Source: Escherichia phage ph0011
Sequence record: OP557969.1
Length of the DNA stretch: 64,000 nt
Strand: one strand, 5' to 3'
A model generated the notes under the pieces. It ran no database searches and had not been told where the DNA came from. It saw only the letters and a program-made list of their open reading frames with translations. The position numbers were made by a program, and so were the translations under genes. This document shows, one piece after another, positions 18,452-63,753 of this stretch; the first letter of the stretch is position 1; each line of letters starts with the position of its first letter.

Positions 18452-18546
18452 TAGAATCCATTTAAAGTACTATTTGACATTGCCCAGATAGTACTTTATA
18501 ATAGACTCTAACTTGTAGTACTAACTTAACTAATAGGATGTATACC

Positions 18547-32644: not shown

Positions 32645-33005
32645 AAAAGTAATATTTCTTTTGAATACAAGAAGCTCTTTATATAAGGAGTTCAAAGATA
32701 AGGATAGTTCTTTTAAACCAGTATGTATAGAATTCAATGATTTAATTACAGATGCATTGTTTGAATTTTCCGAGAAATATCAAGATACAGTGTTTGGTGT
32801 TAGGAATGCTATTCATCCAATTACAGGCACAAGGAAGATAACGTTATCTCATTTTACATTTGACAATAAAGATTTATTCAGTTATAATCCCAGTACATCT
32901 TTATATTTTATTCCAAAAGGAGACAAGAATAGTCCGATTCATTACGGATGGATTATATCTTATGTAGTGCAAGGAAAGGAGTATCCTATCAAATGGCACG
33001 ATTAG
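32610..33005 (+). CDS. hypothetical protein (131 aa)
   Basis: ORF overlapping upstream stop; no family motif. Confidence 0.45.
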   Translation: MNMNLEIVQDLKKVIFLLNTRSSLYKEFKDKDSSFKPVCIEFNDLITDALFEFSEKYQDTVFGVRNAIHPITGTRKITLSHFTFDNKDLFSYNPSTSLYFIPKGDKNSPIHYGWIISYVVQGKEYPIKWHD

Positions 33006-60310: not shown

Positions 60311-61159
60311 ATGAAACTTTATCTAATCGTTGACTACAGTAAGGGTTATTATGACTACGCAGAAGAATCTGAAGGGTATTGCTCGTCTACTAATGTCAAT
60401 GTACGCACCAGTAGTACACATGAGCATGAATCTATTACAAATCTAAAAGATTTTATTGCATATCGAGCATTTGAAAAGAATTTCTGTCGTAGTAGATATT
60501 CGAAGTTTGAGTACCCGTTAATTGATGTTCCTGATGAATTGATGTTCCAGTTAATGCTCACTGGAGTACAAGATTATGATTACATTGCGTACAATCACAT
60601 TACTAAGAAAATTTATATCGGTACGTCAACGCATGACATTTCTATGTATGCATCATGCCCCGATGATCGAATGAATGATAGAAAATCATACTATAGTGGT
60701 TCAGTTGGTTCAAATGTTCCATCAAATAAAAATTTATTCTTTGAGTACGAGTTTGATAATCATCGAGGGAAAACAGACCGAGAAGATTATTGTACTGAAA
60801 TTAATAGTTCAAATGGATATGAAGAAGTGAAAGAAGCAATAATGCCATATATCCTAGACAAGTACTACAAAGATTTTCAGTACTGTAGTAATTTTCTAAT
60901 CCGAAATTCTATCAAAATCGGTCGTCAAAGCACTGCATTCTCTAAGTACTACAATGATTCCCCTGTTGCTGAAAATGAATACTGTAATGTTCTCTCAATC
61001 CCACGTGAAGATATGGTATTCATGTTCACATCTTTCATTGAAGATGATGAGTTGTATGTAAAAAACAAGCACAGGTTCATGCTAAGTAATATTGAGGTTA
61101 TGAGAAGCTTAAGTGCAGATATATTAACGAATTTCACTGAAAAAACAGAATACAACTGA
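60311..61159 (+). CDS. hypothetical protein (282 aa), possible distant FamC relative
   Basis: RBS CTGGAGATAT; contains DVPDELMFQLMLTG resembling the FamC motif. Confidence 0.6.
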   Translation: MKLYLIVDYSKGYYDYAEESEGYCSSTNVNVRTSSTHEHESITNLKDFIAYRAFEKNFCRSRYSKFEYPLIDVPDELMFQLMLTGVQDYDYIAYNHITKKIYIGTSTHDISMYASCPDDRMNDRKSYYSGSVGSNVPSNKNLFFEYEFDNHRGKTDREDYCTEINSSNGYEEVKEAIMPYILDKYYKDFQYCSNFLIRNSIKIGRQSTAFSKYYNDSPVAENEYCNVLSIPREDMVFMFTSFIEDDELYVKNKHRFMLSNIEVMRSLSADILTNFTEKTEYN

Positions 61160-61189
61160 GACATACCATAAGTTTATGATATAATATAA

Positions 61190-61218
61190 GGTGACAGCAG
61201 AATATGTTGTCACCTTTT
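61190..61218 (+). terminator. rho-independent terminator
   Basis: GGTGACAG ... TGTCACC stem then TTTTTT. Confidence 0.7.
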
Positions 61219-61762
61219 TTAATCCTGAAAGGTTCCTTTAAAGGAAACGTTTAAAACCTAATCCACTCGAAAATGTAGAGGGTAGATGAGTAGTCCTTTC
61301 AGTACGAACAGCAGATGAAACCCGTTAGATGATGGCATAGTTTGAACCACTCACGGCAATGCGGCTGTATAAAGAACTCCAATAGGATAAAGAGAGTTCC
61401 TCGATAGACATATAAGGATCGCACCTTACCAATTATCTAAGGGAGATTTCATGAGAAATATGCGGTCGGAATTATACAATATAGTTGCGTCCAAATTTTG
61501 TGAAATCAAATACAAGTACTGGTCATATGGTATTTGTATTATGTGTTGGGATGTTTAAGACCAACGACCGTTGCTACAAGAACCGCGATAGAGAGAAACC
61601 GAGCAACCCGCTTTCGTCTCGTATGAGAATTCGTGATATGAACTATGTGAAGACCACCAGCGTCAAATTTTTTTGTTCTTTCCCCTGCGGGGGGATGAAA
61701 TATGCTCAAACAAACCTCGTCAATATTAATTAAAAGAATTATTATTACTTGTAGAATTTGAC

Positions 61763-62386
61763 ATGCGTAGCATGGATAATTCTACTGGTGTTGATGTAAT
61801 CAACATCACGTATATATTCATTGAAGTTTCCACAGGAATAATGATGGCATTTATTAAAAAACAAAAAACATTTACCTATAAGACTTTGGATTTTATTGAT
61901 TGCGAAAATCAAACACAGAATGAAGATAACTTTACTGGATTTGTTGTTATTAAAGAAAAAGGATGTATTTCGTATATCAAGGAATTACAAAATGGAATTG
62001 AAGTAACGTCGGTTAAATTACTTCCTACACAAAAGCCAACAATATCCAAAGCACAATATGGTAATTATTTTGAGGAAAGATATAGTAATAATTTAATAAG
62101 TGTTAAGGCTCATATTATAAAAGGAGAACTAGAAGGAGAATATAGAAAATTCAATCCACAAGGAAAATGTGTTTGGGTTAAATACTTCAATTCAGGAAAT
62201 GATGTAACATCTGAAATAATTGAGTTTTTAGGTTTAACATGTACCCCTGAAACTCTTCATGACTACAAATTTAATGCTGAAGAAGAGTTTAATCTGATGA
62301 TGCGTTATGGAACACATTTTAAATTTTTATATGAATATAACATTGACAGTGGTGTTTTTGATAGGATAGTACAAAACTGTCTTTAA
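61763..62386 (+). CDS. hypothetical protein (207 aa)
   Basis: Long ORF after promoter-like TTGACA; no clear RBS; no confident family. Confidence 0.45.
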   Translation: MRSMDNSTGVDVINITYIFIEVSTGIMMAFIKKQKTFTYKTLDFIDCENQTQNEDNFTGFVVIKEKGCISYIKELQNGIEVTSVKLLPTQKPTISKAQYGNYFEERYSNNLISVKAHIIKGELEGEYRKFNPQGKCVWVKYFNSGNDVTSEIIEFLGLTCTPETLHDYKFNAEEEFNLMMRYGTHFKFLYEYNIDSGVFDRIVQNCL

Positions 62387-62402: not shown

Positions 62403-62927
62403 ATGTCGAAGAAGGATACTTCGAAGAAAAAGCAATCAGTACATTTCAGTACTGGAAAAGATAACTGGACAACTCCAAAGGATTTCTTTGAAGAGTTGGA
62501 TGAGTTATGGGGATTCACACTTGATGCTGCTTGTGTTGATGAGACGGCATTATGTGAAAATTATTTTACACCAAATGACGATTCTCTATCACAGGATTGG
62601 GGAAAGAATATAGTTTGGTTAAACCCGCCATATAGTGATTTGAAAACATGGTTATCTAAAGCAGTAGATGCGTATAATAAAGGAGCAACAGTCGTAATTC
62701 TAGTTCCATCACGAACTGATACAATAGCCTTCCATGAATATGCTGCAAAAGTTTGTGATTGTATTTGTTTCATTAAAGGAAGATTACGATTTGGTATCCC
62801 AGAAGAACCAGAGAAGAAGACAGATTCAGCACCATTTCCTTCATGTCTTATAGTTCTTGATAATTACTTAACTACTGCTAAAATAAATTATCTTAAATCT
62901 ATTGGGTTGGTAATGAAGAAACTATGA
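62403..62927 (+). CDS. phage Dam-type DNA N6-adenine methyltransferase
   Basis: N-terminal W-x-TP...F..L......FTLDAA and catalytic NPPY motif, as in phage Dam-family MTases; RBS AAAGGA. Confidence 0.75.
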   Translation: MSKKDTSKKKQSVHFSTGKDNWTTPKDFFEELDELWGFTLDAACVDETALCENYFTPNDDSLSQDWGKNIVWLNPPYSDLKTWLSKAVDAYNKGATVVILVPSRTDTIAFHEYAAKVCDCICFIKGRLRFGIPEEPEKKTDSAPFPSCLIVLDNYLTTAKINYLKSIGLVMKKL

Positions 62928-63457
62928 AAGAAACATGTATTTTATCATTTATGAGATGTAACCCTGTACATAATGGACATGGTTTAGTTTTTGAAAAGGC
63001 CAAAACATTACAAGAACAGTACAATGCTGATTTGAAAATATATCTAAGTACCAGTACTGACAATATAAAAAACCAACTCCCACCTGAACTAAAAATGTAT
63101 TATACAGAGGGATTTTATCCTTCAGTACAAGAGAACATCTACACCGAAGACAATCTATTTGATATAATGAGAGAACTGGATGGAAAATACTTAGATGTAT
63201 TTTTCATATGTGGTTCAGACCGTATTGAATCTTTTCAGAAAACTCTTGACAGTTACAATGGGAAATTATATAATTTTTGTAATATAAAAGCAATTCAAGC
63301 AGGTATTGATCGCCAATCAAGTCAATATAGTTCAACACAAATGCGTAACTTCGCAAAAAATGAAGATTTTGATAATTTTCGAGAATTTTTACCAGGTAAT
63401 GATGAGGACTTAAAAATTCAATTATTTGAAGATGTTATCAAATACATGAGGAAATAA
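62924..63457 (+). CDS. HxGH-motif nucleotidyltransferase (NMNAT/NadD- or PPAT-like)
   Basis: N-terminal CNPVHNGH (H-x-G-H) and later SSTQMR (ISSTxxR-like); ATGA overlap with MTase. Confidence 0.6.
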   Translation: MKETCILSFMRCNPVHNGHGLVFEKAKTLQEQYNADLKIYLSTSTDNIKNQLPPELKMYYTEGFYPSVQENIYTEDNLFDIMRELDGKYLDVFFICGSDRIESFQKTLDSYNGKLYNFCNIKAIQAGIDRQSSQYSSTQMRNFAKNEDFDNFREFLPGNDEDLKIQLFEDVIKYMRK

Positions 63458-63459
63458 CT

Positions 63460-63753
63460 ATGACAGTACTGTTCAAAACTAATCCAGTTCTTTGGGAACA
63501 AAATGAGCAAGCAGGATTCCGTTCTATCCATGTTGAATACAAGGGTAACACGGTAGTTGCAATTATTGCTAATAAAACTTTAGGAAAATGGACTGCACAA
63601 GTTGTTCCTATGGGATATTCTTATACATCTGATGAGGTAGAATTTTTGGCTGATCTTTATCGTCAAATGCCTTTTATCATTAATGTTCTAGAACAAAGTG
63701 ATACATTAACACATGAAGATGTAATCAACTTTCTTGGAAACTTACATGTGTGA
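63460..63753 (+). CDS. hypothetical protein (97 aa)
   Basis: ORF 2 nt after upstream stop. Confidence 0.5.
   Translation: MTVLFKTNPVLWEQNEQAGFRSIHVEYKGNTVVAIIANKTLGKWTAQVVPMGYSYTSDEVEFLADLYRQMPFIINVLEQSDTLTHEDVINFLGNLHV

Follow-up and report, generated by a model that had tools for sequence, protein, structure and literature searches.

The gene pair and its locus

The window analysed here is a 64-kb stretch of DNA from Escherichia phage ph0011, an Asteriusvirus of the Rak2-like clade of jumbo phages. It carries, on the + strand, two overlapping genes that are the subject of this work: a methylase gene (62403-62927, 174 amino acids) and a gene for a stand-alone nucleotidyltransferase of the HIGH superfamily (62924-63457, 177 amino acids), which belongs to the family T4-GC190 / phrog_3041 / phrog_395. 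The two genes share the tetranucleotide ATGA at 62924-62927, in which the ATG of the nucleotidyltransferase lies over the TGA of the methylase. Both had been located at exactly these positions by an original prediction, and they are real genes, not chance open reading frames (ORFs): the methylase matches Pfam family PF05869 (E 7.2e-33) and phrog_111 (E 1.2e-57), and the nucleotidyltransferase matches phrog_3041 (E 9.4e-53) and phrog_395 (E 1.3e-20).

The DNA of the window is 89-91% identical to that of Asteriusvirus jumbo phages, for example UB, slurp01, 121Q and PBECO4, and the nucleotidyltransferase matches, at 100% identity, the protein that Escherichia phage ph0011 has under the name "putative cytitidyltransferase". 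GenBank records of the Asteriusvirus relatives call the two products "DNA methyltransferase" and "cytidyltransferase". There is nothing unusual about the pair, which the records of ph0011 and about 30 relatives already name. It lies in a dense run of small + strand genes, most of them hypothetical, with genes for RNA ligase and polynucleotide kinase 7-9 kb downstream. We consider it probable that the pair represents two independent accessory genes, an orphan adenine methylase and a HIGH-superfamily nucleotidyltransferase, which stand side by side in a dense polycistronic stretch.

The methylase

Judged from its sequence, the methylase clearly belongs to PF05869, the phage "Dam" family of N6-adenine DNA methyltransferases, and is an orphan enzyme, which bears out its earlier designation as a Dam-type enzyme. 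The match to PF05869 covers residues 17-157 with 114.1 bits (gathering cut-off 28.1), and all 120 methylase homologues found carry the same family. The "orphan methyltransferase" model of PADLOC matches as well (E 6.7e-35), and neither the ORF list nor a profile scan revealed any restriction-enzyme gene in the block. The score against the NCBIfam equivalog TIGR01712 is 95.9 bits, the cut-off being 97.05.

The N-terminal block TPKDFFEELDELWGFTLDAA comprises residues 24-43, with TPKDFF at residues 24-29 and FTLDAA at residues 38-43 (62514-62531, + strand); catalytic motif IV, NPPY, occupies residues 74-77 (62622-62633, + strand). Seven residues (W22, T24, P25, D41, N74, P76 and Y77) show no variation among 35 homologues. 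All the motifs cited by the original prediction are present in the two proteins, while the spacing it gave between TP..F and FTLDAA deviates by one or two residues. The methylase start has a good Shine-Dalgarno sequence 9 nt upstream, AAGGA. Relatives of the methylase occur in 2,153 phage records, with identity of 37% to those of Stx phages and 31-34% to T1-like ones; within the Rak2-like subclade the proteins are 43-95% identical.

Neither a single-sequence search of the PDB nor a search by sequence profile returned a solved structure for the methylase. The closest solved fold to its AF2 model (pLDDT 88.7) is the catalytic domain of PCIF1/CAPAM, an mRNA cap adenosine-N6 methyltransferase (TM 0.67 over the whole protein). 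We read the predicted structure as that of a minimal adenine-N6 methyltransferase core without separate target-recognition domain, and not as evidence of an RNA substrate. DNA is the presumed target; PF05869 is one of the Pfam families to which REBASE gold-standard DNA methyltransferases belong (PMC7248222).

Virion DNA of the close relative fEgEco12 was digested as predicted by EcoRI, HindIII, NsiI, ClaI and other enzymes (PMC13070987), so methylation would be site-specific, not global. Kinship to the non-specific methylases of Hia5/M.EcoGII type was considered and rejected: those are 281-aa, Dam-related DPPY/FxGxG enzymes of another family (PMC3299994), and normal cutting of fEgEco12 DNA by m6A-sensitive enzymes opposes it too (PMC13070987). 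Using S-adenosylmethionine and its NPPY motif, the methylase would methylate adenines of the phage DNA at a short specific site, most likely as a shield from host restriction. GATC is mildly depleted in the window (134 occurrences, 197-232 expected). The characterised Dam enzymes of phages T1, VT-2/933W and HP1 are GATC-specific.

The nucleotidyltransferase family

"Cytidyltransferase" is an inherited, Pfam-style name. Profile matches place the enzyme in the adenylyltransferase branch, as a family of its own. The Pfam family CTP_transf_like (PF01467) reaches 16.4 bits against it, below the gathering cut-off of 21, and is matched at E <= 0.001 by 51 of 71 longer family members. The HxGH nucleotidyltransferase foreseen by the original prediction is confirmed by H16-N-G-H19, part of NPVHNGH (HNGH, 62969-62980), together with S136-S-T-Q-M-R141 (63329-63346); between them, likewise on the + strand, are KNQL at residues 49-52, which reads KNPL in the family, and GSDR at residues 97-100.

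Across 39 diverse members the family motifs are GRxNPx(H/T)xGH, KNPL, GSDR, YNG and S(A/S)(S/T)xxR. Six residues are invariant (H19, N50, R100, N112, S136 and R141), and G10, R11, P14, G18, K57, G97 and D99 are nearly so. This conservation means that the residues used in the HIGH superfamily for nucleotide binding and catalysis are intact as a set. The fold is the Rossmann-like nucleotide-binding one, as in phosphopantetheine adenylyltransferase (PPAT), nicotinamide mononucleotide adenylyltransferase (NMNAT) and class I aminoacyl-tRNA synthetases.

The family is large. A tblastn search with the nucleotidyltransferase found it in 546 phage records, of which 369 belong to Synechococcus phages, and an exhaustive profile search collected 3,624 representative clusters. 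At 77 of 80 other viral loci from IMG/VR the domain is part of a protein of 225-1,070 amino acids. Among the 71 longer members, 15 are fused to DUF5824 and four to P-loop kinases of the Zeta-toxin/AAA_33 type; further fusions involve ParB_N and an intein. As clues to function, none of these fusions proved decisive, most of the extensions having no Pfam match, and gene neighbours were uninformative (in Pseudomonas phage 30-3 they encode Kelch and laminin-G-like proteins, in P-SSM2 unknown ones). Cyanophage members have been repeatedly detected in purified virions by authors who call their function unclear (PMC9146016, PMC9602691), and the literature on the family offered nothing beyond that phrase. 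As to virions of Asteriusvirus, the structural paper on phAPEC6 has no nucleotidyltransferase term in its main text.

Candidate reactions

By analogy with PPAT and NMNAT, on which the proposed reaction is modelled, the nucleotidyltransferase would most likely pass AMP from ATP, the presumed donor, to a phosphorylated small molecule (X-P + ATP -> ADP-X + PPi). The resemblance to PPAT and to NMN/NaMN adenylyltransferases had been noticed in the original prediction, and these are indeed the nearest solved folds. A single-sequence search of the PDB gave no matches for the nucleotidyltransferase. Its family profile matched PPATs over their full length (H. pylori, E 5.8e-6, positions 2-150), and in the H. 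pylori alignment the HxGH, KNP[LM] and SS..R segments fall on their PPAT counterparts. Matches to NMNATs in the PDB were confined to the first 60-70 residues, and hhalign aligned the nucleotidyltransferase with the NadM-Nudix NMNAT of phage CBB at the N-terminus only (probability 82%).

A PPAT-like enzyme, which would make dephospho-CoA or adenylylate a related phospho-metabolite, is suggested by these profile matches, the best and the only full-length ones in the PDB, by the fitting size (177 amino acids against about 160) and by one relative annotated as PPAT, in phage Turkey5. Against this, identity to PPATs is 12-17% with TM 0.6-0.66, the PPAT-specific models of Pfam and NCBIfam gave no match, and the family invariants GSDR and YNG do not fall on identical residues in the H. 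pylori alignment. A phage has moreover no obvious need for extra CoA synthesis, and no other gene of the CoA pathway lies nearby. We regard this assignment as doubtful.

Somewhat better, but still unlikely in our judgement, are the chances of an NMN/NaMN adenylyltransferase that maintains NAD+ levels in the infected cell, as a minimal NARP-like counter-defence or metabolic booster fed by host-derived NMN. The N-terminal 60 residues do align with the NadM-type NMNAT of CBB (GRFQ..HSGH...KNPF against GRxNPxHxGH...KNPL), NCBIfam NadD models match weakly, one cyanophage homologue bears an NMNAT annotation (PMC9602691), the P-loop kinase fusions are reminiscent of NadR, and the phage encodes Sir2 and a Nudix protein. 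The likeness to NMNATs is however limited to the generic nucleotide-binding N-terminus, the NadD scores are about 20 bits with cut-offs of 112-150, and the family is core in T4-like cyanophages whatever NAD genes they have. The remaining evidence on this point comes from the distribution of NAD-salvage genes.

Phage-encoded NAD-salvage enzymes exist, as the original prediction had stated; such pathways (NARP) were defined in bioRxiv 10.1101/2024.02.11.579819. Rak2-like relatives of ph0011 possess a canonical pair of the NARP2 type, composed of Nampt (CBB_115) and a NadM-Nudix NMNAT (CBB_113) in phage CBB (PMC5259590). In GAP32, SE_PL and KP13-7 these two genes lie about 23-29 kb downstream of the methylase and nucleotidyltransferase genes, and Nampt is present also in CBB, Yen9-04 and XaC1; relatives with the nucleotidyltransferase gene thus already own a separate pair. 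In Asteriusvirus the situation differs. No member of it was among the 60 best phage matches to CBB Nampt, which reach down to 36% identity and include other Rak2-like genera. A tblastn search for Nampt and NadM found neither in the window, in the 26-kb locus of 121Q, or in the syntenic 49 kb of phage JP4, hence no phage source of NMN in the stretches searched.

Phages retain the nucleotidyltransferase whether or not they have the salvage module, which argues against its being the NMNAT of that module, although it may still use NMN. The link to NAD salvage drawn in the original prediction is weakened, as Asteriusvirus retains the gene while its syntenic site is without Nampt and NadM. A dedicated NAD-salvage role is unlikely; what we favour is a nucleotidyltransferase of the HIGH superfamily that would act on some phosphorylated small molecule.

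At 226-232 kb of JP4, syntenic with 53-63 kb of CBB, genes for a protease and an HslV-like peptidase occupy the place where Mimasvirus has NadM-Nudix and Nampt. A Sir2-like gene is retained, and after it comes a stand-alone Nudix hydrolase. It seems that the NAD module was exchanged in this lineage specifically.

Junction and adjacency of the two genes

The nucleotidyltransferase ATG is preceded by a weak purine-rich GAAGAA alone. The ATGA junction is compatible with coupling by termination and reinitiation, a plausible arrangement in which ribosomes ending the methylase would probably reinitiate on the nucleotidyltransferase. In this mechanical sense the co-expression that had been read from the overlap remains plausible, but the overlap is no special sign of co-function. 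In the annotation of 121Q, 27 of 58 neighbouring gene pairs overlap, 11 of them (19%) by exactly 4 nt. The junction itself varies among relatives: ATGA is found in Asteriusvirus, for example in 121Q, and as a 4-nt overlap in Alcyoneusvirus KP13-7, whereas Salmonella phage SE_PL has an overlap of 8 nt, Mimasvirus GAP32 a gap of 3 nt and Eneladusvirus Yen9-04 a gap of 8 nt. The ATGA overlap is the ordinary gene-packing style of this genome, not evidence of a shared pathway.

The pair belongs to a four-gene syntenic block in Asteriusvirus, KP13-7, SE_PL, GAP32 and Yen9-04; in Xanthomonas phage XaC1 four genes intervene between methylase and nucleotidyltransferase. Outside the Rak2-like phages, no methylase gene of this kind was present within 4 kb of the nucleotidyltransferase at any of the 80 IMG/VR loci, nor in P-SSM2 or Pseudomonas phage 30-3. 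Since the region is collinear among Rak2-like phages, adjacency is expected by descent. Functional partnership of the two genes is not supported, and their adjacency is best explained by clade-wide collinearity.

Several observations weigh against the reading of two unconnected accessory genes, an orphan DNA methylase and a small-molecule nucleotidyltransferase. The two genes stay together in five Rak2-like lineages between which protein identity is only 33-66%, which could reflect a functional link. The nearest solved fold to the methylase is the RNA cap enzyme PCIF1 and not E. coli Dam, which matches partially. Detection of cyanophage members in virions (PMC9146016, PMC9602691) is odd for a simple cofactor-synthesis enzyme, and so are the fusions to large proteins, DUF5824 and P-loop kinases.

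The AGTACT motif and the case for a functional module

The hexamer AGTACT, noted as over-represented in the original prediction, occurs 248 times in the window against 21 expected (about 12-fold), and CAGTACTG occurs 60 times against 0.6 expected. Within genes there are 157 copies of AGTACT, in all three codon phases, compared with 44.6 +/- 5.5 under synonymous-codon shuffling, and density between genes is higher than within them. The motif is densest at 1-24.7 kb, a zone whose end coincides exactly with the end of homology to the direct terminal repeat of fEgEco12. Enrichment of about 10-fold was present in every Rak2-like locus examined (121Q, GAP32, SE_PL, Yen9-04, XaC1 and KP13-7) and was not seen in Pseudomonas phage 30-3 or P-SSM2. 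The literature searched holds no mention of AGTACT in jumbo phages.

These data bear on the idea that methylase and nucleotidyltransferase form one functional module, in which the methylase marks AGTACT/GTAC, or in which both enzymes act on RNA, a PCIF1-like adenosine methylase being joined with a maker of adenosine cap precursors such as NAD or dephospho-CoA. The clade with AGTACT enrichment is exactly the one in which the pair occurs. Adjacency is kept in Asteriusvirus, Alcyoneusvirus, SE_PL-like phages, Mimasvirus and Eneladusvirus, the methylase fold is closest to an RNA cap m6Am writer, and directly upstream of the block all these phages have a large structured RNA, described below. Each of these points has its counterpart. 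The correlation with AGTACT is uninformative, as hundreds of other genes are equally clade-specific; nothing ties the motif to the methylase, and the connection suggested originally between the two found no support. Adjacency is what collinearity of the whole region leads one to expect, the pair is split in XaC1, and the two genes do not co-occur at the other loci examined. Members of PF05869 are DNA methylases (PMC7248222), and other copies of the upstream RNA adjoin unrelated genes. A module of this kind appears very improbable to us.

We also give a small chance, comparable to that of a PPAT-like enzyme, to a broader proposal. The nucleotidyltransferase would be the minimal form of a phage-specific family with an undescribed activity, for example formation of a cap precursor or an adenylylated metabolite of unusual kind, used or delivered by phages when infection begins; among Rak2-like phages its partner may be a PCIF1-like methylase that targets AGTACT/CAGTACTG or RNA, and not GATC DNA.

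Other composition signals

GCGC is absent from the 64 kb of the window, with about 51 copies expected, or 31 +/- 4 under synonymous shuffling. It is absent likewise from every Rak2-like locus fetched, the hosts of which range from E. coli to Xanthomonas. Pseudomonas phage 30-3 does contain it; the 7.5-kb locus of P-SSM2 is also without it. The absence points to strong selection, throughout the clade, against a nuclease of host or phage that cuts GCGC. Many palindromes of 6 bp have zero occurrences in the window, CTGCAG, GGATCC and GAGCTC among them. TAAATA is strongly depleted (13 against 97 expected). A T4-like late promoter, ATAAATA, was reported for CBB and GAP32 (PMC5259590), and the depletion fits its avoidance in a region of small genes.

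Neighbouring genes and promoters

The syntenic block consists of genes for a hypothetical protein, the methylase, the nucleotidyltransferase and a small protein. The first, at 61763-62386 (+ strand), matches phrog_16210 (E 3e-86), and genes for 172-215 amino acids take its position in 121Q, GAP32, SE_PL, Yen9-04, XaC1 and KP13-7. The last, at 63460-63753 (+ strand), codes for a hypothetical protein of 97 amino acids that matches phrog_14956 (E 1.2e-45); it begins 2 nt past the nucleotidyltransferase stop with a Shine-Dalgarno sequence of its own, GAGGAA, and has positional counterparts of 94-104 amino acids in 121Q, GAP32, SE_PL and Yen9-04. A PADLOC scan returned no match for the nucleotidyltransferase or for either neighbour.

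A perfect sigma-70 promoter, TTGACA-17 nt-TATAAT, with 12 of 12 consensus positions matched, is located at 63246-63274 (+ strand) inside the nucleotidyltransferase ORF. It is made from codons of the conserved LD.YNG.LYN motif and faces the downstream genes; 121Q, SE_PL and KP13-7 keep it, GAP32, Yen9-04 and XaC1 do not. With a promoter inside the nucleotidyltransferase ORF, transcription units here do not follow gene function, which counts in favour of two independent genes. Perfect sigma-70 consensus sites number three in the window (0.06 expected), the others being at 18474-18502 and 32860-32888.

Between the stop of the gene at 60311-61159 and the structured RNA there is a conserved extended -10 box, TGATATAAT (TGnTATAAT), at about 61177-61185. 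Directly downstream of it lies a hairpin at 61188-61216 (+ strand) of 12 pairs with a T-run, resembling an intrinsic terminator. Box and hairpin are kept in six aligned phages from five host genera, less cleanly in XaC1.

A candidate structured RNA upstream of the block

The gap of about 600 bp upstream of the block (61160-61762) harbours an element of about 480 nt, whose core lies at about 61240-61740 on the + strand. Its nucleotide sequence is conserved between genera in which the flanking proteins share only 40-65% identity, and within Asteriusvirus it is 95-97% identical while the flanking genes are 82-91%. In each of the 61 Rak2-like records that matched, there are four to five copies per genome. 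GenBank records either leave the element without annotation or place spurious small ORFs over it, and neither Rfam 15 nor ARAGORN gave a match.

RNAalifold, applied to 20 orthologous and paralogous copies, yielded 57 pairs in 13 helices. Standard pairs are formed in 98.2% of cells (38-47% in controls with slid partners), compensatory changes affect both sides of 31 pairs (2-8 in the controls), and the covariation score is 0.478 (0.06-0.10 in the controls). Alternations of G-U indicate the + strand as the RNA strand. Long noncoding RNAs (lncRNAs) were reported for a distant relative, PA5oct (PMC7318152), and nhmmer detected no homology between them and the element. The element looks like a candidate for an undescribed family of large structured RNAs.

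Significance

As found, the pair is a matter of routine annotation, and its overlap says little. What is worth pursuing is the role of the T4-GC190 family, which numbers over 3,600 sequence clusters and is common among the T4-like cyanophages of the sea; the stand-alone, 177-aa nucleotidyltransferase of Asteriusvirus would present a handy form of it for purification and assay. The structured RNA is more interesting than the pair itself.

Comparison with known systems

The methylase has much in common with phage Dam enzymes of PF05869 / TIGR01712. Besides the high Pfam score it shares their layout, TPxxxF...FxLD(P/A)(C/A)A...NPPY, their size of about 170 amino acids, the lack of a separate target-recognition domain and the position of an orphan in a phage genome, with 31-37% identity to the Dam enzymes of Stx and T1-like phages. 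It departs from them in its score just under the TIGR01712 equivalog cut-off and in belonging to a Rak2-like subclade.

The nucleotidyltransferase differs from CoaD and from the NMN/NaMN adenylyltransferases (NadM, NadR, NadD and archaeal NMNAT). Identity to them is 12-18%, no family-specific model scores above threshold, GSDR and YNG mark a distinct family, and no pathway partners are encoded nearby. With NARP2, the phage Nampt and Nmnat of KVP40 type, it shares phage origin and the HIGH-type adenylyltransferase. The Nmnat of the Rak2-like relatives is however a 365-aa NadM-Nudix protein and not this gene, which in contrast to both NARP2 and NARP3 is not located beside Nampt or PnuC and has no kinase or Nudix domain. 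NARP3, composed of PnuC and NadR (PMC13464706), does not fit either.

The closest relatives are the T4-GC190 proteins of cyanophages (P-SSM2 gp194, S-SZBM1_140 and S-SCSM1 ORF91), with which the nucleotidyltransferase shares family and motifs at 30-36% identity. Whereas at most other loci the domain is embedded in a larger protein, in Asteriusvirus it stands alone in 177 amino acids; the cyanophage proteins were found in virions (PMC9146016, PMC9602691).

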